From the NCBI GenBank assembly GCA_036009625.1, contig DASYLJ010000167.1, positions 1,323 to 65,322 of the forward strand: 64,000 nt of DNA, given 5' to 3'. The number at the start of each line of letters is the position of its first letter. Position 1 is the first letter of the stretch. This stretch comes from Candidatus Binatia bacterium. Lineage in GTDB: Bacteria > Desulfobacterota > Binatia > DP-6. Both the position numbers and the translations under genes were made by a program. The notes beneath the pieces are model-generated. The model did no database searches. It was not told where the DNA came from and was given only the letters and a program-made list of their open reading frames with translations. This document shows positions 20,275 through 46,325 of this stretch, piece after piece.

Positions 20275-20814
20275 TCAGACCTCGGGTTCGGTGAGGACGA
20301 CCTGCACGCTCGCCACCGGCGTGTCGGGGAGCGCGTAGATGAGGCCCTGGTAGAGGCCGGCGACCGCCGTCGGCTCGGCGGGCGGCGTGGGCGGTGCCGG
20401 CACTTCCACCACCAGCGACAGCGTGCGGCGGTCGGCCGACAGCACCGGCTCGTCGGTGATCAGGACCTCGGTGCCACCGACGCGCTGGAGGGGAGTGACG
20501 GCGAGGACGGCCCCGATGCCGGGGGGCGCGATGGTGACGGCGCCGTCCTTGTCACCCGACGCCGCGAGCGCCGAGACGATCAGCATCGACGGTACCGTGC
20601 CGCCGCCGACGACGGGCACCATGCCCATCCAGAAGTCGACGGTGTCGAGCCAGAGACCGAGGCCGTTCGCGAGGAGCTTCTCGGTGGCCGTCGCCTCGTC
20701 GTTCTCTTCTGTGTCGCGTACCGTCTGGCGGAGCGTCAGGAGTCGCTGGTCGGTCGAGAGGAAGAACGCCGCGACGCTGCTCGCGTACTCCGTGAATGCG
20801 GTCAACCCAGTCAT
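20275..20814 (-). CDS. hypothetical protein P2 (distant paralog of P1)
   Basis: 179 aa with GGAGGTG Shine-Dalgarno before the ATG at 20814. Motifs are GLGLWLDTVD and VAGLYQGLIYALPDTPVASVQVVLT, in the same order as in P1. Confidence 0.6.
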   Translation of the reverse strand: MTGLTAFTEYASSVAAFFLSTDQRLLTLRQTVRDTEENDEATATEKLLANGLGLWLDTVDFWMGMVPVVGGGTVPSMLIVSALAASGDKDGAVTIAPPGIGAVLAVTPLQRVGGTEVLITDEPVLSADRRTLSLVVEVPAPPTPPAEPTAVAGLYQGLIYALPDTPVASVQVVLTEPEV

Positions 20815-20866
20815 GTCACCTCCAGATGGACGGTGTTATAGCGCCAGACATGGCTTTGTCTAGTCT

Positions 20867-21985
20867 CTAGGTGTCAATCGTTACGGGACAACAAGCCAGC
20901 TCTCCCATCTGGGCGGCGAGCTCGTCGAACAGCACCTCGAACATTGCCCGCACGGAGGCGTTCACGAGCGCGCTCTCGAAGCGGATCACCTTCGACGCCT
21001 CGATGCGGGTGCCGTCGCCGTGACGGGTGGCGACCGCCGACCCGGCGTCGACGACGATCTTCTGTCGCACGCCGAGCACCGAGCCGCAGACGGGACGGCG
21101 CAGCGAGTAGCTCACGGCGAAGGTGTCGACGGCCGCCTGCGTCGGGGCCGACCACCAGGTGGTGCGGATGTCGAGCAGGTTCGTGAACCACGACTCGAAC
21201 CCGGGGACGCCGGTCACGAAGTACTCGAACAGGACCTTCGGTGCCGGCCAGCCGTACACCGAGCCCGCCGTCTCGGCCGTGCCGATGGTGGCCGCGCAGT
21301 GCGCGGTGGGGTAGTCACCGCTGCCGGGAGCAGCGAGGTAGGTGCCGCCGAACGGGAAGAACGCGCTGCAGGTGTCCCAGCTCTGCGGGTCGATCGAGGC
21401 CCGCACGTCCTCGAGCGGCCGGTCGACGTCGACCTGGACCCACGCCGATGCGCTCTCGCCGACGGCGGGGACCGACACCTGCAGCCGGGTCCAGCAGTCG
21501 CTGGGCTCACCCATCAGCAGCGAGAGCTCGTCGCTCAGGGACCGTTCGAGTGCGACGGGAGCCGCGTCGAGCGTGGACATCGCCGTGCCGCGGGCCTTCA
21601 CGCCGGGCTTCGGACGCGCGGCGACGTGCTCGACGATGGCGCTGACGCGTTCGGCGACGTCTGCCGGCGCTGGAGGCTTGCCGCCGCTGCGCATTGCGCC
21701 CTCGACGATGACGCCGATCGCGTCGGTGATGCGCTGCACCGGGGCCGGCGCGAGCCCGGGCCGGCCGAGCCCGTACGCGGCAAGCTTGGCGACTGCCCGC
21801 CGGCGGCGGGACGCGGGGACGTCGTGTTTCTCGTCGGCGCCGGGCCGGTCGTCGGCCAGCATGCGGGCGGCCGCTTCGAGCGGCAGGGGGGTGAAGCCGC
21901 GCGGAAAGCGGCCGTGGGGATAGCGCGCGTGCGCGTGCACGCTGAGCATGGCGGTGAGCCGTCGGAGCGATCGCTCGTCTCTCAT
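20867..21985 (-). CDS. hypothetical protein translationally coupled to the STAND kinase
   Basis: The ATG at 21985 overlaps the kinase stop (ATGA). The C-terminal ~220 aa (CWTRLQVSVPAVGESASAWVQVDV...FEYFVTGVPGFESWFTNLL...RIEASKVIRFES) look like a mixed alpha/beta START/SRPBCC-like fold, which is a guess. The start is uncertain: 21994 or internal Met codons are possible. Confidence 0.55.
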   Translation of the reverse strand: MRDERSLRRLTAMLSVHAHARYPHGRFPRGFTPLPLEAAARMLADDRPGADEKHDVPASRRRRAVAKLAAYGLGRPGLAPAPVQRITDAIGVIVEGAMRSGGKPPAPADVAERVSAIVEHVAARPKPGVKARGTAMSTLDAAPVALERSLSDELSLLMGEPSDCWTRLQVSVPAVGESASAWVQVDVDRPLEDVRASIDPQSWDTCSAFFPFGGTYLAAPGSGDYPTAHCAATIGTAETAGSVYGWPAPKVLFEYFVTGVPGFESWFTNLLDIRTTWWSAPTQAAVDTFAVSYSLRRPVCGSVLGVRQKIVVDAGSAVATRHGDGTRIEASKVIRFESALVNASVRAMFEVLFDELAAQMGELACCPVTIDT

Positions 21986-24900
21986 GTGCTCCATTCCGCG
22001 AGGCGGGCATGCGCCTCGGCCTCGTCTCGCGTGTCGCCGCCCGGCACGAGCCGCGCGCAGGCGTCGCTCACCAGTCGCCGTGCCTCCAGCTGCTCGCCCT
22101 GCGCGGCGAGGAGCCGGCCCATGCCGAGGGCCGCACGCAGCGCGAACGCGTGCGCGCCCTGGCGTGCGGCGAGCTGCAACGCCGACTCGAGCTCGTGTCG
22201 CGCTCCGGCGACGTCGCCGCGACGGCAGAGGAGCTCGCCGCGCAGGCGTCGCAGTTCCGCTTCGTAGAAGCGGTCGACGTAGATCGCGGTCATGGCGAGC
22301 CCGGTGTCGACGGCGGCGAGCCCCGCCTCGTCGCCGTCGTCGCACGCGAGCCAGGCCTCGGCCTGCAGGGCGAGATGGTAGGGGTGCGTCGTGCGCAAGC
22401 CGACCATGTCGAACAGCCCGAGCCCGACCGCCAGCTCGGTGAGGCCCTCCTCGCGCGCGCCGCTCGCCACCAGCGCCCAGCCGTGGGTGCAGGTGGCCGG
22501 ACCGAGCCATAGGTAGAGCTTCTGCTCGTTGGCGTGCGCCATCGCGCGCGCCGAGACGTCGAGGGCACCGGCGACGTCGCCGATGCCGTGGGCGAGATTG
22601 GCGCTGAAGCCGTACGCGATCGCGAGCCCGTAGGGATTCCGCGAGCGCTGGGCGAGGGCGAGCATGGTGTCGCGGACACCGCGCGCGGCGAGCGCGTCGC
22701 CCTGGATGCACAGCGTCCACATCAGGTAGGCGTAGGCGTAGAGGCCGCCGTCGTAGCCGTACTCCGCAAGGAAGGCGCGATAGGCGTCGCTGTCGTACCA
22801 GGGCACCGCCTGTTCGAGTGCGTGACGCGCCGCCGGGAAGTCGCCGGACAGGAAGGCCGCGAGGCCGGTGTGCGCATGGGCGGTGAGCAGGTTGACGGGG
22901 TCCGGCGCGTGCTCGGCGAGGCGATGGAAGCGCGGCAGGATCTCGTCCACCGCGGCGCGGTTGCCGCGCGAGATGTGGACGCCCCAGATGCCGTGCAGCG
23001 CGCGCACCGGCACCTCGGCGCCGAGGCGATCGCAGACCGCCTGCGCGCGGGCGAACGTGGCCTCGACCTCGGGCGCCGCGTAGCCCTGCGTCGACAGCTG
23101 TGCCGTGCCGAGCGACTCGATCAGCCCGAGCTCGAGCGCGCCCAGCGTGGCGCGTGCGGGGGCCTGCTCGACGAGGCGGACGCCACGCTGCAGGTGACGG
23201 ATCGACTCGACGTAGGCGCCGCGCGCCATAGTGCGGTCGCCGACGCGCTTCCACTGCTCGGCTGCCTGCACCGTGCGTCCCGCGAGCTCGCAGTGGTGGG
23301 CGAGCATCTCGGGGCGGTCGAGGACGATGTCTGGAAAGAGCTCTTCCAGCACCCGTGCCACGCCGTCGTGCGCGCGCCGACGATCGGTGAGCGGCATCAT
23401 CTCGTAGGCGGCGTCCCGCACCAGCGCGTGCTTGAAGACGAAGCCGTCGGGACGTTGGCGGGTGCGCTGGTGGACCAGTCCGGCATCGGTCAGCTCGCGC
23501 AGATCTTCGCGCAGGACACCGTCTTCAGTGGCGGCGATCGCGCGCAGCAGCTCGAGGCGGAACTCGCGCCCGAGCGTGGCGGCCAGCTGCGCGGTCTCGC
23601 GTGCGCCACGCGACAGCGCGTCGAGCCGCGCCGTGAAGAGATCGCGCAAGGTGCCCGGGACGGTGACGGTCTCGGCGCCGTCGGCGGATGCCTCGGCCTC
23701 GAGCAGGACGCGCGCGATCTCCTCGACGAACAGCGGTATGCCGTCGGCGCGGGCGACGACGGCGTCGAGGATGCCGGATGGCAGACCGCGGGCGTCGCCG
23801 ACGGCACCGCCGACCAGCCGGATCACATCCGCGGCCTCGAGGCGCGCGAGCGGAATGGCGATGGTCGGGGACAGGGCGCCGAGGCCCTCCGGCGTCGGGC
23901 GCGCCGTGCCGACGAGGTAGAGCCGTGGCAGGGCATCGACGCTGCTCGATCCTGGCGGCGGCAGTGCCGCGAGGAGCTGGGAGAGGAGCTCGAGCGTCGT
24001 CGGGTCGGCCCAGTGGAGATCCTCGACGACGAGGACGAGGACGCGCTCGGTGGCGATGCGCAGAAGGAGGGTCGTGATCGCCTGCAGGGTGAGATCGCGT
24101 CGGCGATCGGGCGAGACGGCCAGCGCAGGGTAGCGTGGGTCGGGCGGCCGGCCGAACAGCTCTGCCAGCAACGGTTCCGTCTCGGCCGGGTCCAGACCGT
24201 GACGGAGGAGCAGGGCGTCGAGCGCGCCGTCGGCGACGGTCGCGAGCACGTCGGCGATCGGACGGAGCGGGCTGTCCTGGCTCTCCGGGATGCACCGCGC
24301 TTCCATCCACGACGCAGCGGGCACGCGCCGGCGCAGCTCGCGCACGAGCCGGGATTTGCCGATGCCCGGCTCGCCGGTGACGAGCGCGAATCCGGATCGT
24401 CCGCGTTGCGCCGCCGCCCATCCGTCGAGCAGGGTGTCGAGCTGCGGCGTGCGGCCGACGAGTGGCGTCTCGCGCGCGACGCGGATCGTGTCGCCGCCGG
24501 CCCGCGCATCCGGCGGTGTCAGGCGGAAGACGTCGTCGTGGGCGGTGGGCTCGCAACCGACGGCGCCGCGCAGCAGCCGCTGCGTGTCGAGGCTGACCAG
24601 GACGTCGCCCGCAGTGGCGAGCTCGTCCAGGTGGGCCGCCATGCGCGCGCACGCGCCGAGCGGCTCGCAGGCGCCGTCGCCACGACCGACCTCACGGACC
24701 AGGCCGAGCCCGGTGTGCACGCCGAGGCGCACCTCGAGTCGCGGCGTGGTCTGCGCGACGGCGCCCACCATCTCGAGTGCGGCACGCGCGGCGAGGCGGG
24801 CTTCGTTCTCCCGCGTCTGCGGATAGCCGAAGACGAAGAGCGCGCGATCGGCGAGCGTGCTGGTGCGGTGGCCTCCATAGCGCGTCGCGATCGCCGTCAG

Positions 24901-25890
24901 CGCCGTGATCTGCTCGTGCAGGAGCAGGTCGGCCTCCTCGGGATCGATGCCCGGCCCTTCCGACGCGGTGGCGCGCAGGCAGCATGACACCATCGTGAGC
25001 TGACGGCGCTGCGCCGTGGCCGGCCGGTCGGTGGCGGGGACACGGTCGCCGCCGGCGAGCGGCGTGATGGCGACGAGCTCATCGAGCACCTCGGCCGCGT
25101 TCGCGGCGCGGCGCTCGACGGCCTTCGTGGTGACGCGGCGGAGCAGGGCGCCGAGCGGCTGCCCGTGCAGCCACTCGGGCAGCCCGACCGCGTCGGGGCC
25201 GAGCTGGCGCAGCACCGCATCGTGCCGAGAGCCGGCGCGGACCGCGCGCTCTCCCGTCAGGCATTCGAGCAGGACCAGTCCCCAGGCGTACAGGTCGGAG
25301 CGCGGTGTCGCCGCCTCGCCGCGGAGCTGCTCGGGCGCGGCGTAGCCGGCGGTTCCCACCACCTCGCCGCGCTCGCCGTCGACGACGGTGGTGGCGAGCC
25401 CGAAGTCGAGCACCAGCGCATTGCGGCGCAGCCCGGTGGTGGTGACCATGATGTTCTCGGGCTTCAGATCGCGGTGCACCACGTCCTGCGCGTGGGCATA
25501 GCCCAGCGCATCGAGCACCTGCCCGAGGAGGTGCAGCGCCTCGGGGACGGGGAGCGGACCCTCGCGATCGAGGAGCGTCCGCAGCGACTCCCCGGGGATC
25601 AGCGCGAAGGCGGCCCAGGTCGCGCCGTCGGCCGTGCCGGCATCGAGCAGCGGGACGATGTTCGGATGTACGAGCGCCGCGCAGCGACGGATCTCGTGCT
25701 GCAGCTGCTGGTCGCCGTCGACGGGCGTCGAACCGTCGGATCGTCGCACCCGCTTGAGCGCCACCTCACGGTCGGTCGCGATCTGTCGCGCGCGGACGAC
25801 GTCGCCGAAGCCACCGACGCCGAGCTGGCCTAGGAGCTCGTAGCCCACCGGAACGCCGCTCTCGGAACGGAGATCTTGCTCACGGCGCAT
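21982..25890 (-). CDS. Ser/Thr protein kinase fused to a cyclase-homology-like domain, STAND/AAA ATPase and TPR array
   Basis: Kinase motifs are LGVGGFGDVVRA, VALK and HRDLKPENIMV. The class III cyclase-like segment is LTMVSCCL...LADRALFVFGYP...RLGVHTG. P-loop is GEPGIGKS (near 24352-24375). The C-terminus is long and TPR-like. An alternative start lies at 25926. Confidence 0.9.
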   Translation of the reverse strand: MRREQDLRSESGVPVGYELLGQLGVGGFGDVVRARQIATDREVALKRVRRSDGSTPVDGDQQLQHEIRRCAALVHPNIVPLLDAGTADGATWAAFALIPGESLRTLLDREGPLPVPEALHLLGQVLDALGYAHAQDVVHRDLKPENIMVTTTGLRRNALVLDFGLATTVVDGERGEVVGTAGYAAPEQLRGEAATPRSDLYAWGLVLLECLTGERAVRAGSRHDAVLRQLGPDAVGLPEWLHGQPLGALLRRVTTKAVERRAANAAEVLDELVAITPLAGGDRVPATDRPATAQRRQLTMVSCCLRATASEGPGIDPEEADLLLHEQITALTAIATRYGGHRTSTLADRALFVFGYPQTRENEARLAARAALEMVGAVAQTTPRLEVRLGVHTGLGLVREVGRGDGACEPLGACARMAAHLDELATAGDVLVSLDTQRLLRGAVGCEPTAHDDVFRLTPPDARAGGDTIRVARETPLVGRTPQLDTLLDGWAAAQRGRSGFALVTGEPGIGKSRLVRELRRRVPAASWMEARCIPESQDSPLRPIADVLATVADGALDALLLRHGLDPAETEPLLAELFGRPPDPRYPALAVSPDRRRDLTLQAITTLLLRIATERVLVLVVEDLHWADPTTLELLSQLLAALPPPGSSSVDALPRLYLVGTARPTPEGLGALSPTIAIPLARLEAADVIRLVGGAVGDARGLPSGILDAVVARADGIPLFVEEIARVLLEAEASADGAETVTVPGTLRDLFTARLDALSRGARETAQLAATLGREFRLELLRAIAATEDGVLREDLRELTDAGLVHQRTRQRPDGFVFKHALVRDAAYEMMPLTDRRRAHDGVARVLEELFPDIVLDRPEMLAHHCELAGRTVQAAEQWKRVGDRTMARGAYVESIRHLQRGVRLVEQAPARATLGALELGLIESLGTAQLSTQGYAAPEVEATFARAQAVCDRLGAEVPVRALHGIWGVHISRGNRAAVDEILPRFHRLAEHAPDPVNLLTAHAHTGLAAFLSGDFPAARHALEQAVPWYDSDAYRAFLAEYGYDGGLYAYAYLMWTLCIQGDALAARGVRDTMLALAQRSRNPYGLAIAYGFSANLAHGIGDVAGALDVSARAMAHANEQKLYLWLGPATCTHGWALVASGAREEGLTELAVGLGLFDMVGLRTTHPYHLALQAEAWLACDDGDEAGLAAVDTGLAMTAIYVDRFYEAELRRLRGELLCRRGDVAGARHELESALQLAARQGAHAFALRAALGMGRLLAAQGEQLEARRLVSDACARLVPGGDTRDEAEAHARLAEWST

Positions 25891-26077
25891 CTTGCTCACT
25901 GCGATTGTCCGAGCGCCGATTACCATGGGTACCCTACCACTATGCAACTTCTCATCCACGATATCGTGCCGGTGAACCTCGGCGGCGCGCGCGTACTGTC
26001 CTGTCGAGCAGACGAACTGTCCTCTCGAGAAGGCACGCTGGCGGCGTCGGCAGCGGCATCGTGAGGCTCGGCGGGAT

Positions 26078-26093
26078 GGGCCCATGCCTTGCT
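26078..26093 (+). promoter_or_regulatory. weak sigma-54-type promoter candidate upstream of the EBP pair
   Basis: gGGcccatgccTTGCt has GG and TTGC with the canonical spacing (GG at -10/-9 relative to the TTGC). The -24 box is GGGCCC rather than TGGCAC. It lies 240 nt upstream of the ATG at 26331. Confidence 0.25.
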
Positions 26094-26166
26094 TGTATCC
26101 GCGGTCATGATGCGAAGCCGTTCCGGAGTAGCCGCGCGACGCTTGCGGTTGCGACGGGCCCAGGGG

Positions 26167-26200
26167 GCCCCCCCCGCGACCGACCGGCGCGGGGTGGGGC
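26167..26200 (+). promoter_or_regulatory. strong GC hairpin in the leader/intergenic region
   Basis: GCCCCCCCCGCG accgaccgg CGCGGGGTGGGGC, an 11-12 bp G:C stem with one bulged T. It lies between the promoter candidate and the R1 start. Confidence 0.3.
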
Positions 26201-26330
26201 TACTGGTCGGCCAGTGCTCGGTCTGTCGCGTGCGGTTCGCGTCACGGCTCGAGCATCGTATCGACGTCGCCTACCTCCTCGTCGTCCACCAGCAGCTGTG
26301 TCCGGGCGGACGACGTGGCGGTGAGGTCGT

Positions 26331-27830
26331 ATGGCCGCTCAGCGGCTGAGGGCGGAGGCGCTGGGGGGTGTCGGGATGGCGTCGATGGCGTCGTCGGAGG
26401 TTTTCATCGCGGACGAGCTGGCGCAGGCGAGACGAGAGCGCGACCTCTACGTGAGGCTGCTGCGGCTCGGCGACGAACGCGGTGTCGAGCTCCTGCTGCG
26501 CGAGGCGTTGTCGCTCATCGTCGACGCCACCGGGGCGCGGCAGGTGTACATCGAGCTGCGTGCCGCCGGGGACGAGCCGTCGTGCCGTTCGGTCGCGTGC
26601 GGGCTGTCCGAGCCCGAGGTGGCTCGCGTCCGCACCGCACTGGCGCAGGGTGCCCTCGCCCGGGGACTGGCGACCGGGCGCACCGTGATCACACCGGCGG
26701 AGGTCGGCGATGCGCGCTCCAGCGTGCGGCCGCTCCGCCTCGGTGCCGCGCTCTGCACGCCCATCGGCATCGATCATCCGCTGGGCGCCCTCTACCTCAA
26801 GGGACCGCAGCATCGTGCCCACTTCACCGATGCCGACCGCGAGGCGGCCGAGCTGCTGGCACGACACCTCGCCCCACTCGCCGATCGCCTGCTCGCGGTC
26901 GAGCGACATCAGGCCGCCGTGGGCGCACCCCCGTTGCCACCGGCGTACGGTCTCGTCGGCGGGAGCGACGCCTTCACCACTCTGCTTCGTCAGATTGCGC
27001 TGGTGGCGCCGCTCGACGTGCCGGTGTGCATCGTGGGCGACGCGGGCGCCGGCACCACCCGCGTCGCGCGCGCGCTCCACGACGCCGGGCGACGGGCGAC
27101 GGGACCCTACGTCGTGGTCGACTGCTGCGGCCTCGCGGCCGAGCGTGGACGACTCTCGCGTGCGGTGGCCATCGCGGCGGGAGGCACGCTGCTGCTCGAC
27201 GACGTCGGCGCGCTCGATCTGGACGGGCAGGCCGACGTCCTCGCCGTCCTCTCGCATCGCCCCTACCGGCCGGTCGGGTCCGACGACGACGTCGCCGACG
27301 TGGGGGTGCTGGTGACGGCCGGCACCGAGCTGCAGGCCGCGGTCGACGCTGGTCGGTTTCGAGACGATCTCCAGCGGATCCTCGGGATCATGCCGTTGCG
27401 CGTGCCGTCTCTGGCGGAGCGCCGCACCGACATCACGATGCTCGCGGCCCACTTCCTGCGACAGACGTGCGGCGAGCGTGGCCTCCCGTATCTGACGCTG
27501 TCGCCGGGAGCGTTCCGTGCGGTCGAAGCCGCGGAATGGCGGGGCAACGTGCGCGAGCTGGCCGACGTCGTGGCGCAGGCGGCACGACGGGCGGCGGATG
27601 CCGGTGTGCGTCAGATCGAGTGCGCGCATCTCTTCCCCCCTGCCGCGGAGGTCACGGTGATGGAGACGACGTTGCAGGAGGCAACCCGACGGTTCCAGGC
27701 CGCGCTCCTCGTCGAGGTGCTCGAGCACACGTCGTGGGACGTCGCGCGGACGGCCGACCGGCTCGATCTGCGGTATGCTCAGGTAGATTCGCTGATTCGT
27801 ACCTTCGGGCTCGACAGGGGGAGTCGATGA
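26331..27830 (+). CDS. GAF-AAA+-HTH regulator R1, sigma-54-EBP-like with degenerate ATPase motifs
   Basis: GAF-like N-terminus is RERDLYVRLLRLG...ALCTPIGIDHPLGALYLKG. Walker A is GDAGAGTT (no Lys). About 20 residues are missing where GAFTGA should be. Walker B is LLLDDVG. WRGNVRELADVV and a C-terminal Fis-type HTH are retained. Confidence 0.8.
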   Translation: MAAQRLRAEALGGVGMASMASSEVFIADELAQARRERDLYVRLLRLGDERGVELLLREALSLIVDATGARQVYIELRAAGDEPSCRSVACGLSEPEVARVRTALAQGALARGLATGRTVITPAEVGDARSSVRPLRLGAALCTPIGIDHPLGALYLKGPQHRAHFTDADREAAELLARHLAPLADRLLAVERHQAAVGAPPLPPAYGLVGGSDAFTTLLRQIALVAPLDVPVCIVGDAGAGTTRVARALHDAGRRATGPYVVVDCCGLAAERGRLSRAVAIAAGGTLLLDDVGALDLDGQADVLAVLSHRPYRPVGSDDDVADVGVLVTAGTELQAAVDAGRFRDDLQRILGIMPLRVPSLAERRTDITMLAAHFLRQTCGERGLPYLTLSPGAFRAVEAAEWRGNVRELADVVAQAARRAADAGVRQIECAHLFPPAAEVTVMETTLQEATRRFQAALLVEVLEHTSWDVARTADRLDLRYAQVDSLIRTFGLDRGSR

Positions 27831-29416
27831 CGCCCACGTCAATCCTGCATCGCACTTCTCCGGGGTCGGTCGACGGTGCTATGGATGCGCCCGTGGGCAC
27901 ACCGTCGCAGAACGACGAGCTGCTGCGTATCCGTCGGGAGCGCGATCTCTATCTGCGCCTGATCCGCCTCGGCGAAGAAAACGATCTCGAGCCGTTCCTC
28001 GAAGAGGCGCTGGGCCTCGTCGTCGACATCACCGGCGCGCGTCAGGGCTATCTCGAGCTCATCGACGACGGTGGTGGCGGCGAGCGCCGATGGTGGAGTG
28101 GACGAGGGTTCTCCACCTCGGAGATCGACGGCGTGCGCGCCCTGTTGTCCCGCGGCATCATCGCCGAGGCGCTGGCGTCGCGACAGACGATCCTCACCGG
28201 CTCCGCGGCGCGCGACCCGCGTTTCCGCGAGTTCGACAGCGTGCGTGGGCTCGCCATCGACGCCGTGCTGTGCGCACCGATCGGCACCGATCCACCGCTC
28301 GGGGTGGTCTACCTGCAGGGGCGATCACCGAGCGGCGTCTTCGCGGAGGGCGACCGGGCCACCGTCGAAGAGTTCGCGCATCACCTGGCGCCGTTCGCCG
28401 ACCGGTTGCTGCAGCATCGCCGCCGCCGCGACGAGGCCGACGCGACGCGACCGCTGCGCGCCCGGCTGCGGCTCGATGGTGTCGTCGGACGGAGCGCCAC
28501 GCTCGCGGCCACGCTGCAGCAGGTGGGCCTGGTGGCGCCACTCGACGTCGACGTCCTACTGCTCGGCGATACCGGCACCGGCAAGACGCAGCTCGCGCGC
28601 GTCATCCACGACAACAGCCGCCGCGCCGCCGGCCCCTTCGTCGTGGTCAACTGTGCCGCGGTCCCGGACACGCTGTTCGAGGCCGAGATGTTCGGCGCGG
28701 CGGCAGGGGCGCACTCCACGGCCACGCACCGCATCGACGGCAAGATCGCCGTCGGGCAGGGCGGTACCATCCTGCTGGACGAGGTCGCGGAGCTCGGGGT
28801 GGCGTCGCAGGCGAAGCTCCTGCAGATCATCCAGTCGAAGCAGTACTTCCCCCTCGGCAGCAACAAGCTCGCGTCGGCCGATATCCGTATCATCGCGGCG
28901 ACGAACGTCGACCTGCCCGCCGCGGTGGCGGCGGGGCGCTTCCGCGAGGATCTGTACTACCGGCTGCTCGTCCTGCCGATTCGCGTGCCGTCGCTGGCGG
29001 AGCGTCGCGACGACATCGCCGCGCTCGCGGAGCGTTTCGTCCAGGTCGCGGCCGAACGCCATCGGCTGCCGGTCGTCGGGTTCTCGCCCGCGGCCGCGCG
29101 CGCGCTGCAGGTGGCGGAATGGTCCGGCAACGTGCGCCAGCTCGAGCACGTAGTCCAGGCGGCCCTGATCCGCGCCGTCGGCAGCGGCGCGCAGCAGATC
29201 GAGTGCACGCACGTCTTCCCCGATCCGCGCCCCGGCGGTCCGCCGGTCGAGCAGCACGAGACCTTCCAGGAAGCCACGCGTCGGTTCCAGGCTGGGCTCG
29301 TGCGCCAGGCGCTCGAGGACAGCCACTGGAACGTGATCGAGGCCGCGCGTCGCCTCGACATCGCGCGCTCGCACCTCTACACGCTGATCCGCGCGTTCGG
29401 GCTCGAGAGACACTGA
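27827..29416 (+). CDS. GAF-AAA+-HTH sigma-54-type enhancer-binding protein R2 (intact ATPase motifs, variant GAFTGA)
   Basis: The ATG at 27827 overlaps the R1 stop (ATGA). Walker A is GDTGTGKT, Walker B is ILLDEV and the R-finger region is RFREDLYYRL. WSGNVRQLEHVV is present. The HTH is IEAARRLDIARSHLYTLIRAFGL. GAHSTA stands at the GAFTGA position. Confidence 0.9.
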   Translation: MTPTSILHRTSPGSVDGAMDAPVGTPSQNDELLRIRRERDLYLRLIRLGEENDLEPFLEEALGLVVDITGARQGYLELIDDGGGGERRWWSGRGFSTSEIDGVRALLSRGIIAEALASRQTILTGSAARDPRFREFDSVRGLAIDAVLCAPIGTDPPLGVVYLQGRSPSGVFAEGDRATVEEFAHHLAPFADRLLQHRRRRDEADATRPLRARLRLDGVVGRSATLAATLQQVGLVAPLDVDVLLLGDTGTGKTQLARVIHDNSRRAAGPFVVVNCAAVPDTLFEAEMFGAAAGAHSTATHRIDGKIAVGQGGTILLDEVAELGVASQAKLLQIIQSKQYFPLGSNKLASADIRIIAATNVDLPAAVAAGRFREDLYYRLLVLPIRVPSLAERRDDIAALAERFVQVAAERHRLPVVGFSPAAARALQVAEWSGNVRQLEHVVQAALIRAVGSGAQQIECTHVFPDPRPGGPPVEQHETFQEATRRFQAGLVRQALEDSHWNVIEAARRLDIARSHLYTLIRAFGLERH

Positions 29417-29526: not shown

Positions 29527-30309
29527 TTAGCTGCAGCGCGACGGCCAGGTGAGTTTCCACACCAGGTTGCGCACCTCGAGGGTTCCGCCGGGGACGCCTG
29601 GGCAGAGGCGTGGCGAAAGACCTTCGACCAGATTGCCGTCGATCGATATCCAGCCCGCGGCGGGGCGGAGGTCGGCGTGGCTGAAGTCCCAGCCGAAGCG
29701 GGAACAGCGGATGCTGCCGTCGGGGCGGCGGCCGAGGACCGGGAGGTGCTCGAAGAGACGGCGCACGGCGACGATCGTGGGGAGCGTCGTCCGGGTCGCG
29801 GGCTCCCAGGGACCGCGGGGCTCGACGGCGGCGTGGAGGAGGAGACGGTCGTCGTCCTCGGAGAGGATGAAGAGGGGGCCGTCGCTGCGCATGCGGGCGG
29901 TGGTCTTGGCGAAGCCGTAGTGGGCGTTGCCGTGCCAGGTGGCGGGGAAGTAGGCGGAGCACATGCGCGCCACGAAGACGTGCGGCGCCTCGCCGTGCCG
30001 CTGTCGCACGAACGGGACGAGGACGGCGAATTCGCCGTAGCGGATGCCGAGCGGGACGGGGCGGCCACCCACCAGCAGGGTGCCGTCCGCCTGCTCGCCG
30101 AAGACGAACAGGACGGGGTGCTGCGACGGATCGATGCAGCCGCCGGTCATGAGCTCGAGCGACGGGGGAAGGGTGGCTGCGACGTCGGCGCGCGGCAGGC
30201 CGACCACGCACATGCGTCCCGAGAACGTCGCCTGCCCGTTGAACGTGGTGCCGGCGTGGAGCGCCGGATCGGGCCGTGGAAAGGTCCCGGGGTCGAAGAA
30301 CGGCTGCAT
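29527..30309 (-). CDS. acetoacetate decarboxylase-like family protein
   Basis: 260 aa from MQPFFDPGTFP. GIRYGEFAVLVPFV and the MCSAYFPATWHGNAHYGFAKT segment resemble the ADC-family Y-x-E and GRE-x-WG-x-PK regions. Confidence 0.55.
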   Translation of the reverse strand: MQPFFDPGTFPRPDPALHAGTTFNGQATFSGRMCVVGLPRADVAATLPPSLELMTGGCIDPSQHPVLFVFGEQADGTLLVGGRPVPLGIRYGEFAVLVPFVRQRHGEAPHVFVARMCSAYFPATWHGNAHYGFAKTTARMRSDGPLFILSEDDDRLLLHAAVEPRGPWEPATRTTLPTIVAVRRLFEHLPVLGRRPDGSIRCSRFGWDFSHADLRPAAGWISIDGNLVEGLSPRLCPGVPGGTLEVRNLVWKLTWPSRCS

Positions 30310-36906: not shown

Positions 36907-38739
36907 TCAGACCGCGATCTCGTCGACGTAGCACCAGCGCCAGGTCTCGCCCGGCTCGGCGGAGCGCACGATGGGATGCTGGCTCGCCCAGAAGTGCCGG
37001 CTCGCATGGCGGTGCTTCGACGAGTCGCAGCAGCCGACGTGGCCGCAGGCCAGGCACGCGCGCAGGTGGATCCACGTCTCGCCGAGCCGCAGGCATTCCT
37101 CGCAGCCGTCCGTGCGCGGCGGCGCATCGGTGATGGTGTCGAGATGGTCGCACGTCGGCGTGGCGTCGGTGTCGTCGAGCGGTTGGGTGCCGGCCGCATC
37201 CAGCGTGACGGCGGCGACGGCGGCGCCGGCCAGCACGAGGGCGGCGCACAGCAGCACGGCGCCACGGAAGCCGTCGAGGAAGGCGTCGTGCAGCAGCGTC
37301 GACAGCGCGGGTCGCTCGGTAGGAGCGACCCAGTCGGGAATGGAGGTGTCGGCGAGGTTGCGTCGCTCCGCCACCAGCGTGCGCGCGACGTCGGCCGGGA
37401 CGTCGGCCTCGACCAGGCGGTGCTCGAGGGCCGCGCTGTAGAGCGCCAGCGTCACCACGCCGGTGACGGCGACGGCGAGCAGCGTCCCGACGCGTGCGGC
37501 CGTGCTGTTGACGCCCGAGGCGACGCCGGCCGACGACGGTGAGACGGCGGCGAGCACGCTGGTCGTGAGTGGGGCGACCGTGAACGCCATGCCCAGCCCG
37601 GCCAGCGCCATCGGCCCGAAGAAGGTCGTCCAGTACGATCCGCCGATGCCGGGGAGCGCCATCGCGGCCAGCCCGAACGCTGCCAGGACGGGTCCAGCCA
37701 CCAGCATCGACTTCGTGCCGATGCGGTCGGCGAGGGCGCCGGTGCGCGACGAGAGGAGACCGATGATGAGCGCGAAGGGCAGGAACGCGGCGCCGGTCGC
37801 GATCGCGGAGTAGCCCTGCACCTGGACGAGGTTGAAGGGCAGCACGAAGAACGCGCCGGTGATGCCGGCGTACACCAGGACGGTGACGAGGTTGACGCCA
37901 CGGAACGCGCCCGACGCGAACAGCGCCGGCGGCAGCATCGGGTGCGGCGTGCGGCGCTCGTGCACCACGAAGCCGATCAGCGAGGCGATGCCCACGCCGA
38001 GCCCCACCAGGGCGGCCACGCCGACACCGATGATGCCGCTGACGATGCCGAAGAGCCCGAGCGTGGCGAGGGCGGCGCCGACCCAGTCGACGTCGGAGGC
38101 GCGCCGCATGACCGGCGGGTCGGGCACGCGCCACCAGGTCAGGACGAACGCCAGCAGTGCCGGCGGAATCGTGGCAGCGAACGCGACCCGCCACGAGCCG
38201 GCATCGACGAACCAGCCGCCGAGCATCGGGCTCAGCGCGCCGGTGATGGACGTGGCCGCCGACCAGGTGCCGATGGCCTTCCCACGCTCGGCACGCGGGA
38301 AGGCGGCGCTCAGCAGCGCCAGGCTGTTCGGCGACAGCAGTGCCGCTGCCAGCCCCTGCGCCGCGCGCGCGGCGACGAGCGTGTTCACGTCGGGTGCCAT
38401 GCTGGCCGCGACCGACGCCAGGGCGAGCCCGGCGGTGCCGACCAGGAACATGCGGCGGCGGCCGAAGCGATCGCCCGCGGCCCCGCCGGCAAGGGTCAGC
38501 GCCGCGAGCAGGATGGTGTAGGCGCTCGCCACCCACTGCATCTGCGCCACCGTCGCCCCGAGCGACGCCTGGATCGCCGGCAGCGCGACGTTGATGACCG
38601 AGGCCACCATGAAGACGAGGCTCGATCCGAGGATGGTGGCCGCCAGCACCCATTTGCGCGCGTAGGAGGCGCAGCCCGGGGTTTCTGGCGCGGTCCGGAC
38701 GACGGCGACGTCGCAGGATGGGCGTTCCTCGCCGATCAT
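36907..38739 (-). CDS. MFS transporter (DHA2/EmrB-like, about 14 TM) with C-terminal UBP-type zinc finger
   Basis: MFS motifs include LAGGAAGDRFGRRRMFLVG. The C-terminal 82 aa, CEECLRLGETWIHLRACLACGHVGCCDSSKHRHASRHFWASQHP, has the zf-UBP Cys/His pattern. Confidence 0.85.
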   Translation of the reverse strand: MIGEERPSCDVAVVRTAPETPGCASYARKWVLAATILGSSLVFMVASVINVALPAIQASLGATVAQMQWVASAYTILLAALTLAGGAAGDRFGRRRMFLVGTAGLALASVAASMAPDVNTLVAARAAQGLAAALLSPNSLALLSAAFPRAERGKAIGTWSAATSITGALSPMLGGWFVDAGSWRVAFAATIPPALLAFVLTWWRVPDPPVMRRASDVDWVGAALATLGLFGIVSGIIGVGVAALVGLGVGIASLIGFVVHERRTPHPMLPPALFASGAFRGVNLVTVLVYAGITGAFFVLPFNLVQVQGYSAIATGAAFLPFALIIGLLSSRTGALADRIGTKSMLVAGPVLAAFGLAAMALPGIGGSYWTTFFGPMALAGLGMAFTVAPLTTSVLAAVSPSSAGVASGVNSTAARVGTLLAVAVTGVVTLALYSAALEHRLVEADVPADVARTLVAERRNLADTSIPDWVAPTERPALSTLLHDAFLDGFRGAVLLCAALVLAGAAVAAVTLDAAGTQPLDDTDATPTCDHLDTITDAPPRTDGCEECLRLGETWIHLRACLACGHVGCCDSSKHRHASRHFWASQHPIVRSAEPGETWRWCYVDEIAV

Positions 38740-38897
38740 GCGCCGCCGGACGCCTCTCGCTGCATCGCCCCGTCCATGGCCCGCCGAGTTGTGTCCTCGC
38801 GGCGGAGCCGGCGCAACGGTGTTTCCCCGTCGGCGTCACGAAAATTCCCCGAAACTCTCCGGACCTCACCCCCGGGCGACGGGTAAAGGCAGCGCCC

Positions 38898-42877: not shown

Positions 42878-44893
42878 TCAGTTGGCCGGCGGGGCCGGGA
42901 GATTCGCCGCGAGCACCGGAACCCGCACGGTGCCGGAGACGTTCACGAGCGCGGCGACGTCGGTGCCCGAGCCGACGTATCGCGGCACGAACGAGGCGTG
43001 GATCAGGAGGCGCAGCTCTTCGCCCGGCGCCAGGCGCGCGGTGGCGCCGATGAGCTCGTCGTCGAACGCGCCGTAGCCGCGGAACGGCCGCACCTGGTTT
43101 GCCTGCAGCAGCGTGTCGAGGAGCGCGCCGGGTGCGCGTCGCGCCAGGCCGACGAAGACGATCGGATCGCCGAGCGAGAGACCGAGCGGATCCGCGACCT
43201 GCAGCTGGATGGTGGGAATACCGGCGACGACGGCGCCGTTCGGTCCGGCGACGGTGAGCACGATGCTCTGCACCAGCGGGCTCGCATCCTGCGCCAGCAC
43301 CGCCGTCGACGGAATGGCGAACGCCTGACCGCCCGCCGGCACGCCGTCGGTGACGACGCCGTCGTCGACGGTGGCATCCATGTGGAAGCAGGTACGCGGA
43401 ATGTAGTCGGCGTGGCCGGCCATGCCGCGGAGCTTCTCGTCGTACCAGTCGACGATCGACTGCGTCTTCTGCAGCGCGCCGCACTGCTCGCCGGTGTTGA
43501 ACCCGCCGATGCCGGGGAAGAGGCTGTCGTGGCCGCCGTTCTTCGTGAGCAGACGCACGTCGCCGCCGAGCGCCGCGACGCAGGCCGCGTTGTGCACCGC
43601 CTCGTTCAGATTGAAGAGCGTGTCGCTGGCGGACTGCCAGTAGAGCGCGTCGATCGGCGGTAGCGTGCCGGCTTCGCACTGTGTGATCAGGCTCGACGCC
43701 TTCAGGAGGTCGAGCTGCTGCTGCGTCAGGCTGTTCGTGGTGAGCCCCTGGATGAGGCCGGCGGTCACCTCCGGGTCCTGTCCACCCGGCGTGGCGGTGC
43801 CTGCCGCCGACAGCGCCACCGCCCAGAACGACTTGAAGACCGATCCCGAGAACAGCGCGGAGCGCAGGTCGTGCCACGTGATCTCGGGAGCGATCGCGTC
43901 CAGACGTCGCTGTGGGTCGTGGGCGTAGAGGATGTGCTGGAAGCCGCCGCCGTAGCTGCCGCCGGTGGCGCCGAGGAGCAGATTGCCGTCGCGGTAGGCG
44001 AGCCAGGACAGGGCGCCTTCCGCCCAGTCGACGATCTGGACGAGATCACGGCCCTCGAAGTTCGGATCGAGGATGCGGATCCGTCCGCCGCTGCCGCCGT
44101 GGCCGCGCTGGTCGACGGAGATGATGCCGTACCCGGCGTCGAGCAGGCGCGCGAACGTGTCGCTGCCGCCCGGCGCCGGGCGCTCGGCGGCGGCGATGCG
44201 ATTGCCGCCGTAGCCGTGTCCTTCGAGGATGAGCGGATACTTGCGGCCCTCCACGAAGGTGGTGGGCTCGTGCACGGTGAACGCGATGTTGGCGCCGTCG
44301 ACGCTCGACGGCATGACGACGTCGGTGGAGACGCCGTCGCGCGGCGTCGCGACACCGCCGGGGCAGCTCGCGGGGGCGGGCGCGTTCTTGGCGACGAAGG
44401 CGCCCGGCTGATTGCGCTTGATGATGCCGCCGAAGAGCGCGCAGTACCGCGTGTCGCCGGTGGTGAGGACGAGGCCGATGGCGCTCTGGCTGGGCTCGTT
44501 CAGCGAGATGCCGGTGGAGCGTGCCTTGACCTTGAGGCTGCCGTTCTTCAGCAGCGCCACCTTCACCGCCGACGGTCCCGCAGGCGCGTCGGGATTCTTG
44601 AACTTGTACGCCGTACCATTGCCGTTCGCCGTCCAGCGACTCGCCGGCAGGTCGATGGTGGCGGACTCGCCGCTGTCGGCGACGACGATGGCGAGCACGG
44701 CGCCGGTCGTGCGCGGGTCGCTGCCGTTGGTTGCGATCAGCGGCGACTTCGCTGTGAACGACAGCTGCTGGCGACCGGAGCGCGCCGACATCGCCAGTGA
44801 GCGACCGGGGATCAGACGGTCGGCCGCGTGCGCGCCGGCGGTCGAGAGGAGGAGCATCGAGACGACGGTGGACGCGGCACGGAATGACGGCAT
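42878..44893 (-). CDS. secreted CocE/NonD (S15, X-Pro dipeptidyl-peptidase-like) hydrolase with an extra N-terminal domain
   Basis: Signal peptide is MLLLSTAGAHA. The alpha/beta hydrolase core has PLILEGHGYGG, DQRGHGGSGG and the nucleophile elbow GATGGSYGG. About 150 aa of N-terminal domain are shared with the gene at 62562. Confidence 0.8.
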   Translation of the reverse strand: MPSFRAASTVVSMLLLSTAGAHAADRLIPGRSLAMSARSGRQQLSFTAKSPLIATNGSDPRTTGAVLAIVVADSGESATIDLPASRWTANGNGTAYKFKNPDAPAGPSAVKVALLKNGSLKVKARSTGISLNEPSQSAIGLVLTTGDTRYCALFGGIIKRNQPGAFVAKNAPAPASCPGGVATPRDGVSTDVVMPSSVDGANIAFTVHEPTTFVEGRKYPLILEGHGYGGNRIAAAERPAPGGSDTFARLLDAGYGIISVDQRGHGGSGGRIRILDPNFEGRDLVQIVDWAEGALSWLAYRDGNLLLGATGGSYGGGFQHILYAHDPQRRLDAIAPEITWHDLRSALFSGSVFKSFWAVALSAAGTATPGGQDPEVTAGLIQGLTTNSLTQQQLDLLKASSLITQCEAGTLPPIDALYWQSASDTLFNLNEAVHNAACVAALGGDVRLLTKNGGHDSLFPGIGGFNTGEQCGALQKTQSIVDWYDEKLRGMAGHADYIPRTCFHMDATVDDGVVTDGVPAGGQAFAIPSTAVLAQDASPLVQSIVLTVAGPNGAVVAGIPTIQLQVADPLGLSLGDPIVFVGLARRAPGALLDTLLQANQVRPFRGYGAFDDELIGATARLAPGEELRLLIHASFVPRYVGSGTDVAALVNVSGTVRVPVLAANLPAPPAN

Positions 44894-44960
44894 GGTGTCG
44901 CGACCTTACGGAGCGGCGCGGCGCGGTGCCTCCCGCGGCGACGTGACTCACATCCCGGGG

Positions 44961-46325
44961 ATGCGTGAGGTACCCAAGAATATTGCCAGGAGGGTGATTG
45001 ACGACGCGACGGGCTTGGGCGCACTCTCCCGGTCGGTGGGGGCGAGCGCAGCCATTCCGGTGCTCGACGATCTGATGCGTCACGAGCTGCTGGCGCTCCT
45101 CGATGCCATCGGTGCGCGGTGCGGATATCTGGCGCTCTACGGCGACGACGATGCGCCGGGCGAGCCGAGCTGGTGGATCGCGCAGCACCTGCAGCCGGGC
45201 GTCATCGCGGCGGTCGCTGCGCGCGTGTCGCGCGGCGGCACGGCACGCGCGTTGGCGTTGGGTGAGGTCGCCGAGGGCACGTCGTCGCTCTGTGCCGCCA
45301 TCGGTGCCGATCCGCCGTGCGGCCTGGTGTTCGTCGAGACGCCGGCCCCGGTCACCAGCCGGCAACGGATGCGCTTCGCCGCGGTGTTGCGAGGGGCGAC
45401 GACGCGGCTCATGCGGGCGTTGTCCGACGAGCATGCCCGCGATCCGCTCGCGGCGTTGCGCGGACACCTGTGTCTCGATGGTGTCGACGGCCGCAGCGCG
45501 GCGCTCGTGGCGATGCTCCAGGACGTCGCCGAGCTCGCGCCGCGGGACGTACCGGTGCTCGTGCTCGGGCCCACCGGTGCCGGTAAGCGGCGCGTGGCGC
45601 GCGTGCTGCACGACAGCAGCCCCTTCGGACGCGGCCCCTTCGTCGAGCTGCACGTCGAGGCGATCTGCGCGACGGCGATCGACGACGTGCTGTGGGGGAG
45701 TCGCGCGCCCGGTGGCCGGGCCGGCCTGTTGGCGATGGCGCGGGGCGGGACGTTCCATCTCGACGGCTACGGCTCGCACGATCCCGCCATCGAGGCGAAG
45801 CTGTCGGCGGTCCTGACGCAGCGATCGGTCGGATGTCGCATCGTCGCGAGCACGCGGTTCGCCACCGATGCATCGTGCCCGAGCACGCTCCTCGATGCCC
45901 TGCGCGACAACGTGGTGACCGTACCCTCGTTGGCCGAGCGCACCGGCGACGTCGCCCTGCTCGCGCGCACCGGGCTGGACACCGCCGTTCGACACCACGG
46001 CCTGGCGCCGATGGACATCTCGTCGGCGGCGCTGCGGTGGCTCGTGGCAGCGGACTGGCCCGGCAACGTGCGTTCGCTCCTCGACTGCGTCGAGCGCGGG
46101 GCGATCCTGGCCGGCGCCGAGCCGTCGTCCCTGGTGCAGCTCCGCCACCTCACCCACGACCCGCAGGCGCCGACGCTGCACGACCTGCCGCCCGACCAGC
46201 GCCCGACGGCGCTCGCGCGCGCGCTCGTCGGCTCGGGCTGGGACGTCGACGGTACGGCGCGGCGTCTCGACCTGCGACGCGCCGAGCTCTACCGCATGAT
46301 CCGCGACCACGGCCTCGCGGCCTAG
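44961..46325 (+). CDS. GAF-like-AAA+-HTH regulator R3, sigma-54-EBP-like with degenerate motifs
   Basis: Walker A GPTGAGKR is present. No GAFTGA is present. Walker B is FHLDGYG. WPGNVRSLLDCV and the C-terminal HTH TARRLDLRRAELYRMIRDHGL are retained. The start is uncertain. Confidence 0.7.
   Translation: MREVPKNIARRVIDDATGLGALSRSVGASAAIPVLDDLMRHELLALLDAIGARCGYLALYGDDDAPGEPSWWIAQHLQPGVIAAVAARVSRGGTARALALGEVAEGTSSLCAAIGADPPCGLVFVETPAPVTSRQRMRFAAVLRGATTRLMRALSDEHARDPLAALRGHLCLDGVDGRSAALVAMLQDVAELAPRDVPVLVLGPTGAGKRRVARVLHDSSPFGRGPFVELHVEAICATAIDDVLWGSRAPGGRAGLLAMARGGTFHLDGYGSHDPAIEAKLSAVLTQRSVGCRIVASTRFATDASCPSTLLDALRDNVVTVPSLAERTGDVALLARTGLDTAVRHHGLAPMDISSAALRWLVAADWPGNVRSLLDCVERGAILAGAEPSSLVQLRHLTHDPQAPTLHDLPPDQRPTALARALVGSGWDVDGTARRLDLRRAELYRMIRDHGLAA

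Follow-up and report, generated by a model that had tools for sequence, protein, structure and literature searches.

A translationally coupled pair of paralogous GAF-AAA+-HTH regulators in a Binatia bacterium, one of them a predicted pseudo-ATPase

We analysed two overlapping genes, R1 and R2, in a stretch of 64,000 nucleotides from a Candidatus Binatia bacterium (assembly GCA_036009625.1, contig DASYLJ010000167.1, positions 1,323 to 65,322 of the forward strand; G+C content 71%), referred to below as the window. Both genes encode regulators with GAF, AAA+ and helix-turn-helix (HTH) domains, and the pair is an old tandem duplication of a GAF-AAA+-HTH bacterial enhancer-binding protein (bEBP) in one Binatia lineage. 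R2 appears to remain a working ATPase. R1 clearly belongs to the same fold family, yet by its motifs it seems to lack what defines a working bEBP. Our preferred, still tentative reading is that R1 acts as a brake, that is, as a paralogue-derived anti-activator of R2, which some signal or the small protein described below would release. The features of the pair, in coordinates of the window, are the following.

26376-27830 (alternative start 26331), forward strand: R1, GAF-AAA+-HTH paralogue without the L1 loop, predicted to be a dead ATPase
27827-29416, forward strand: R2, GAF-AAA+-HTH regulator with every ATPase motif kept
27827-27830, forward strand: ATGA overlap of the R1 stop (TGA) and the R2 start (ATG); junction letters ggggagtcgATGAcg and GGGGGAGTCGATGACG
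27036-27059, forward strand: degenerate Walker A of R1, GDAGAGTT, with no lysine (R2 counterpart GDTGTGKT)
27111-27185, forward strand: R1 stretch VVVDCCGLAAERGRLSRAVAIAAGG, shortened by 17 residues that include the L1 loop, with Asp in place of the glutamate-switch Asn
27189-27206, forward strand: Walker B of R1, LLLDDV, with the catalytic Glu changed to Asp in six of six orthologue clusters (ILLDEV in R2)
27351-27383, forward strand: GRFRDDLQRIL of R1; members of the clade have Ile, Val or Leu in place of the finger arginine (R379 of R2)
28706-28723, forward strand: GAHSTA, the L1-loop motif of R2, aligned to GAFTGA of ZraR, NifA and FlrC

The two proteins are 43% identical along their full length (BLASTP, E = 6e-121), and GAF, Sigma54_activat, AAA_lid_14 and HTH_8 (a Fis-type HTH) were detected in both with Pfam, which agrees with the common architecture and the paralogy claimed in an earlier note that a model had made from the letters of this DNA. 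Sigma54_activat (PF00158, cut-off 20.2) matched R2 with 187 bits and R1 with 83.1 bits, the latter split in two stretches, and the HTH_8 match of R1 (18.9 bits) fell under the 22-bit Pfam cut-off. R1 is 100% identical to the database protein P0001, annotated from a Candidatus Binatia metagenome-assembled genome. The earlier note had placed the start of R1 at 26331; the ATG at 26376 is likelier, since a conserved small open reading frame (ORF), described below, stops at 26349, and the protein is then 484 amino acids (aa) long, as in P0001 and the orthologues. An alternative start of R2, Met19 (27881), is chosen by some gene callers in orthologues; the conserved ATGA and the stronger Shine-Dalgarno sequence would favour 27827. 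We also noticed that a family-invariant N-terminal helix, RRERDLYxRLLxLG (26430-26471 in R1 and 27932-27973 in R2), resembles the AAA+ arginine-finger helix RFREDLYYRLL. This likeness appeared as a second BLAST high-scoring pair with a non-significant E of 0.2, and mimicry would be pure speculation.

The ATGA overlap was read at the junction as had been claimed, and a Shine-Dalgarno sequence, GGGGGAG, lies inside the 3' end of R1, just 5' of the R2 ATG. The overlap was kept in L014, L015, L016 and L001, i.e. in every related locus with DNA, and the two genes of L018 overlap by 4 bp as called. No conserved internal promoter for R2 was found when the interior of R1 was compared across orthologues; a TGG-N8-TTGCA match at 27661 inside R1, considered as an R2 promoter, was absent from the orthologues and was thus rejected as a chance match. 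The overlap in each of these loci and the lack of a conserved internal promoter support the obligate co-expression of R1 and R2 that had been proposed. NifL-NifA is a known case of a modulator co-transcribed and translationally coupled with the activator it controls, and the position of R1 directly 5' of R2, together with the coupling, corresponds to this type of gene layout.

Six R1-type clusters were set against 56 further subfamily members at positions conserved in at least 90% (R2 numbering). The R1 clade has lost 26 of the 82 conserved positions of the AAA+ core, among them Thr251 of the P-loop, Asn275 of the glutamate switch, the loop 280-299 in full and Glu319 of Walker B. Sensor I, AATN in R2, reads VTAG in R1 (N360 being Gly, Thr or Ala in the clade), and YYRL at the arginine finger (R379) reads QRIL. 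Losses were also found in the flanking domains: the DPRF motif of the GAF domain is deleted in the R1 clade, and Arg514 of the HTH recognition helix, invariant in the family, is Tyr in R1 and Tyr, His or Glu across the clade. The P-loops of the R1-type orthologues read GDPGAGAT, GEPGVGKR, GERGVGKR and GAPGAGIT. Walker A without lysine and the altered Walker B of R1 were both found as the earlier note had given them, and its estimate of about 20 residues missing at the L1 loop corresponds to a gap of 17 residues in alignments with R2 and with FlrC from the Protein Data Bank (PDB). Thus R1 shows the AAA+ homology of a bEBP and departs from working members at Walker A and B, at the GAFTGA loop and at the arginine finger and sensor I. 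That R1 is a pseudo-ATPase is strongly supported at the level of sequence, as catalytic residues acting in cis and in trans, as well as the L1 loop, were lost in six orthologue clusters.

Such losses could be expected of a gene in decay, and R1 does evolve at two to three times the rate of R2, being the faster of the two in all domains, with conserved GAF, AAA+ and HTH residues gone. The gene is nevertheless maintained. Five further R1-type clusters (P0002 to P0006, 83-53% identical to R1) have the same loop deletion, so that the clade consists of six 90% clusters, from uncultured hosts, and the ORF is intact in all six (about 471-484 aa). Their contigs are independent assemblies with a common gene order, i.e. 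a polyprenyl synthase, two genes without assigned function followed by a kinase gene (minus strand), R1, R2, a gene for about 260 aa (minus strand) and an OmpR-type regulator fused to AAA_16; the order was kept in the window locus (W), L014, L015, L016, L001 and the contig of P0006. The ratio of nonsynonymous to synonymous substitution rates (dN/dS or omega, by the Nei-Gojobori method) was 0.26-0.43 for R1 over all pairs and 0.18-0.35 per domain in the closest pairs, the AAA+ core included, in comparison to 0.11-0.25 and 0.10-0.14 for R2, and dS among the R1 orthologues reached 0.75. Selection on R1 is clearly relaxed yet purifying. Substitutions are also fixed in the R1 clade (L226F, L244C, E319D, I448R, N502D). 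The idea that R1 is a functionless decaying gene or an assembly artefact is therefore close to refuted, and we regard it as very improbable: assembly error and pseudogene were rejected on the independent assemblies, the intact ORFs and omega below 0.45, and a confident structural model (see below) speaks against decay as well. The earlier note had named assembly errors or a missing tandem in relatives as what would undo it; both the losses and the tandem recur in independent Binatia contigs. In a wider survey for R1-type loci, a genome scan returned L001 only, and a metagenome scan returned only ordinary members of the subfamily, with at most 46% identity. The dead-and-live pair is thus rare and narrowly distributed.

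The AlphaFold2 model of R1 had a mean predicted local distance difference test (pLDDT) score of 87.1, and the region of the former loop was modelled as short helices (pLDDT 85-93). Its AAA+ core superposes on those of FlrC, NtrC1 and PspF with template modelling (TM) scores of 0.80-0.84 and root-mean-square deviations of 2.1-2.4 A. R1 retains the N-terminal helix mentioned above, the GAF core, the lid, the QEATRRFQ helix and the HTH scaffold; the N-terminal helix, the lid and the QEATRRFQ helix are what would serve association with a partner.

A search with R2 gave two contigs with an intact gene in the R1 position, L018 and L017. In L018 the synteny is unchanged, P0020 being followed by P0015 with the 4-bp overlap, whereas in L017 the overlapping pair (P0008, then P0120) stands in a different genomic context. 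P0020 and P0008 have GDSGTGKS, GAHSTA and AATN or ATTN at sensor I. In a neighbour-joining tree (200 bootstraps), the proteins of the first position (P0008, P0020 and the R1 clade) and those of the second position (P0120, P0015 and the R2 clade) each formed a clade with 100% bootstrap; the two clades mirror each other in internal topology, and the stem of the R1 clade is long. The intact pairs in relatives and the mirrored tree indicate that the pair is old and has co-diverged, and that R1 lost its motifs at a later time, within a single sublineage. In other phyla, the single R2-like genes of L002 to L004 have no partner. The intact pairs in sister lineages make up a natural before-and-after series, which could show the number of live subunits and loops that a ring requires, or the way in which a duplicate turns into a regulator.

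The same intact pairs suggest a hetero-complex that predates the decay, and R1 could be seen as a structural subunit, obligate but non-catalytic, in a productive hetero-hexamer with R2: a co-activator in a ring where only the sites and loops of R2 work. Tandem, overlapping and co-diverging paralogues are what HrpR and HrpS of Pseudomonas syringae look like: these are tandem paralogous bEBPs of one operon, which arose by duplication and diverged together (PMC3105312). They form a hetero-hexamer in which they are non-redundant and contribute unequally to ATPase activity (PMC3105312). HrpS with substitutions in Walker B and sensor II kept significant residual activity, a situation termed 'partial paralogue degeneration' (PMC3105312), and the proposed PspF spiral uses at least two functional L1 loops for sigma-54 binding. 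However, HrpR and HrpS have each retained Walker A and a loop of the GAFTGA type (GAFTGV and GAYTGA), both proteins are required, and so are the Walker A and the GAFTGA threonine of each (PMC3105312). They also differ from R1 and R2, which carry GAF, in having no N-terminal sensor domains and in being controlled by HrpV and HrpG. R1 has lost its trans arginine finger, so that in an alternating ring every R2 site would be without a finger, and mixed RedR1/RedR2 oligomers are active only if both partners are active (PMC10084136). We consider a productive structural role of R1 unlikely. The brake is likelier than a productive ring subunit, as every interface that R1 would contribute is predicted to be catalytically dead in both directions.

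R2 itself keeps GDTGTGKT (28565-28588), ILLDEV (28769-28786), AATN at sensor I (28889-28906) and RFREDLYYRL with the arginine fingers (28934-28966), and the motif check confirmed what had been said of its Walker A, Walker B and finger region. Its L1 loop does not carry GAFTGA and reads GAHSTA instead. This motif was found in 82 of the 120 closest R2 homologues, and GAFTGA or GAYTGA in only a handful, meaning that the whole subfamily is non-canonical at the predicted sigma-54 contact. By source annotation the GAHSTA subfamily is large and includes Binatia, Sorangium, Spirochaetaceae and various candidate phyla, and no mention of the motif in this sense was found in the literature searched. It may deserve attention as a large group of GAF-containing bEBPs with a non-GAFTGA loop. 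In L003, a locus with a single-copy GAHSTA member, we noticed two canonical TGGCA-N6-TTGCT promoters about 0.6-1.1 kb upstream.

The DNA 5' of R1 was more conserved than synonymous sites, and it contains a small ORF.

26107-26349, forward strand: small ORF of 80 aa, with a C-x2-C ... H-x3-C domain after a basic, disordered N-terminus

Orthologues of the small ORF were found at 7723-7965 of L014, 7023-7256 of L015 and 5807-6019 of L001, as well as in L016. The indels between them have lengths divisible by three, and synonymous changes are many, with dN/dS of 0.09-0.23. The family is unannotated and comprises 29 representatives of 46-118 aa, in which C37, C40, H61 and C65 are invariant (C-x2-C ... 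H-x3-C-P-G-G). AlphaFold2 predicted a hairpin-plus-helix domain for residues 31-80 (pLDDT 94-98); the protein belongs to no Pfam family and had no fold match in the PDB (best E = 3.3). Beside the regulators, the small ORF occurs only where R1 is dead: it is absent in L017, L018 and L019, the first regulator being intact in L017 and L018, and its ATG lies at the position where the intact first regulator of L018 starts. Homologues elsewhere stand alone by unrelated genes, so their context gives no function. The small protein may be a third component that arose with the loss, in a working mixed ring with R1 as a permanent non-catalytic member and half the ATP sites and sigma-54 loops. If true, a natural sigma-54 activator would remodel RNA polymerase with this reduced set, and bacteria would have an equivalent of the pseudo-ATPase subunits found in eukaryotic AAA+ hetero-hexamers, standing beside relatives with both partners intact; we think it quite unlikely. 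For the brake that we prefer, the small protein would be a candidate for releasing R1.

The region between the small ORF and the divergent kinase gene was compared in six loci (W, L014, L015, L001, L018 and L017), and the following candidate elements were noted.

25943-25958, reverse strand: sigma-54-like promoter TGGATGAGAAGTTGCA (GG-N10-GC) on the kinase side, an exact TGG-N8-TTGCW match
25997-26014, no strand assigned: candidate enhancer (upstream activating sequence) palindrome 1, TGTCCTGTCGAGCAGACG, of the TGTCC-N8-GGACA type, position kept in W, L014, L015 and L001
26018-26035, no strand assigned: candidate enhancer palindrome 2, TGTCCTCTCGAGAAGGCA, 21 bp from palindrome 1
26079-26093, forward strand: sigma-54-like promoter GGCCCATGCCTTGCT (GG-N10-GC) before the small ORF, R1 and R2, with conserved elements

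The kinase-side element TGGATGAGAAGTTGCA is invariant in L014 and L015 and has one change in L001; the equivalent in L018 is TGGACGCGAAGTTGCA. Exact TGG-N8-TTGCW matches numbered four in the window, against 1.08 expected by chance; one of the four is the match at 27661 inside R1 that was rejected above. In the element on the side of the regulators, GGCCCATGCCTTGCT, the GG and TTGCT are invariant and the spacer is variable in four loci, and the corresponding elements before the first regulator are TGGTCCGATCGTTGCTT in L018 and GGCCCAATCGTTGCA in L017. The spacing of the palindromes (20-21 bp) is conserved in four loci, and the palindromes lie about 85 bp from each predicted transcription start; the L018 counterpart of palindrome 1 is TGTCCACTCCGCCGGACA. 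L018 has promoter elements on both sides and the palindromes, whereas L017 has only the GG-N10-GC on the regulator side and one weak palindrome, with no kinase-side promoter. The layout suggests a candidate enhancer shared between divergent sigma-54-type promoters, so that the system may activate the kinase gene and itself. A generic sigma-54 scan (TGGCAC-N5-TTGC, two mismatches) gave 52 matches against 55 expected and was uninformative, the window not being enriched, so that the stricter TGG-N8-TTGCW pattern had to be combined with conservation, and none of the further TGTCC-N8-GGACA sites can be claimed (32 matches in the window against 28.7 expected). No rpoN was found within the 64-kb window, and nothing on sigma-54 in Binatia was found in the literature searched. 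As a separate observation, a stretch of about 45 bp (25924-25960), from the minus-strand TGG-N8-TTGCA element through the kinase ATG, is invariant in four loci with synonymous divergence of 0.6-0.75. Within it lie two palindromes, GGGTACCC and CCATGG. A promoter by itself would not call for so much conservation, and the stretch may be an operator or leader element.

The palindromes could also be bound by R1 in its own right. R1 could be an independent transcription factor that binds DNA without ATP, has no contact with R2 and may compete for the palindromes; it would be a repressor or an activator of the sigma-70 type. TyrR, NtrX, VpsR and the NtrC of Caulobacter are precedents; like R1, they have an AAA+ domain of the Sigma54_activat type that lacks a functional GAFTGA. 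NtrX acts independently of sigma-54 as well, VpsR is without the residues needed for sigma-54 contact, and both are among the best structural matches of the R1 model. Moreover, the C-terminal HTH scaffold of R1 is conserved within its clade, and a third, unpaired paralogue in the window (R3, described below) suggests that dead paralogues may work alone. These precedents, however, act alone and mostly bind nucleotide, whereas R1 is coupled to an intact paralogue and in the window has no P-loop lysine. The weak HTH_8 match and the replacement of R514 in the clade count against DNA binding of this kind, and an independent factor leaves both the conserved ATGA coupling and the mirrored co-divergence with R2 unexplained. 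On balance, we consider a role of R1 without R2 unlikely.

As a brake, R1 would be made from one message with R2 and the small Cys2-His-Cys protein, the ratio of R1 to R2 probably being fixed through the ATGA overlap. R1 would then form mixed dimers or oligomers with R2 at the shared TGTCC-N8-GGACA sites and decide if R2 can build an active ring. The diverged GAF domain of R1 would determine how tightly it holds R2, and the pair would act on two divergent sigma-54-type promoters, that of the kinase gene and that of its own operon. We infer the contact between R1 and R2, its negative sign and the role of the small protein. Published pairs, in which paralogues hetero-oligomerise and an inactive partner silences the active one, support an action of R1 through R2. 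Several points weigh against the brake. At a fixed ratio it would hold the system off unless a signal releases it, and R1, with the DPRF pocket motif of its GAF domain deleted, may sense nothing. The residual activity of HrpRS with one partner substituted, cited above, leaves some probability to a productive mixed ring, and R3 shows that dead members of the family can exist without a coupled partner. In the control region, the predicted transcription starts lie 3-7 nucleotides from the ATGs, which is unusual, and we infer sigma-54 dependence from DNA motifs only.

The usual picture of an enhancer-binding protein is a ring of six identical ATPases. The earlier note had held that R1 and R2 do not fit the textbook arrangement; this stands as far as the departure from the homohexamer is concerned, but published relatives exist (HrpR/HrpS, FleQ/FleT, RedR1/RedR2 and VnfA1/VnfA3), and R1-R2 is a more extreme variant of paired activators, not a new kind. 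RedR1 and RedR2 of Aromatoleum anaerobium are, like R1 and R2, full-length paralogues with GAF; they prefer hetero-oligomers, in which an inactive partner blocks the active one (PMC10084136). They are, however, 97% identical and both catalytically competent, and their inactivity is conditional on signal state and not due to motif loss (PMC10084136). In FleQ/FleT of Rhodobacter (Cereibacter) sphaeroides one partner is likewise a reduced paralogue, and the two form a hetero-oligomeric activator, as summarised in PMC10084136. According to the same source, FleT is without N-terminal and HTH domains and is yet an AAA+ activator, whereas R1 has kept all domains and lost the catalytic and sigma-54-contact residues. 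VnfZ-VnfA3 resembles R1-R2 in that a modulator is co-transcribed and translationally coupled with its activator (PMC9542535). NifL and VnfZ are unrelated to their activators, while R1, as a candidate modulator, is the activator's own duplicate. None of the closest systems has a partner lacking Walker A, Walker B, finger and L1 loop, and the literature searched gave no example of a live bEBP that is coupled to a dead paralogue. A few paired paralogues are known, with both partners catalytically competent in each, and R1 has lost the ATP site, the finger and the loop. The system should interest mainly AAA+ and sigma-54 specialists, its mechanism being conjectural throughout.

The remaining genes of the region considered here are these.

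21982-25926, reverse strand: divergent candidate target, Ser/Thr kinase with a cyclase-like domain, AAA_16 and TPR (Pfam)
29527-30309, reverse strand: convergent gene for 260 aa with no Pfam match; at the corresponding position, L014, L015, L018 and the P0006 contig have a gene for 226-267 aa
30404-33289, forward strand: OmpR-type winged-helix regulator fused to AAA_16 (Pfam and synteny)
about 44892-46325, forward strand: R3, unpaired third paralogue, about 32% identical to R1 and R2

The kinase gene was found in the same position in L014, L015, L001, L018 and the P0006 contig. Its true start is probably the ATG at 25926, as the MVIGAR codons are conserved with synonymous changes. Downstream of it, on its strand, are two conserved syntenic genes without Pfam match, of about 372 aa (20867-21985, reverse strand) and about 186 aa (20275-20835, reverse strand), which possibly form a putative operon with the kinase gene and thus could be outputs of the system.

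R3 is more degenerate than R1, with Walker A GPTGAGKR, Walker B HLDGY and no L1 motif, and both its pre-sensor I hairpin and its arginine-finger helix are deleted; a Peptidase_S15 gene lies divergent to it. In this genome, the family of R1, R2 and R3 seems to have given rise to dead copies more than once. Elsewhere in the window, at 36907-38835 (reverse strand), we noticed an MFS transporter with a C-terminal zf-UBP zinc finger, which is an unusual fusion.

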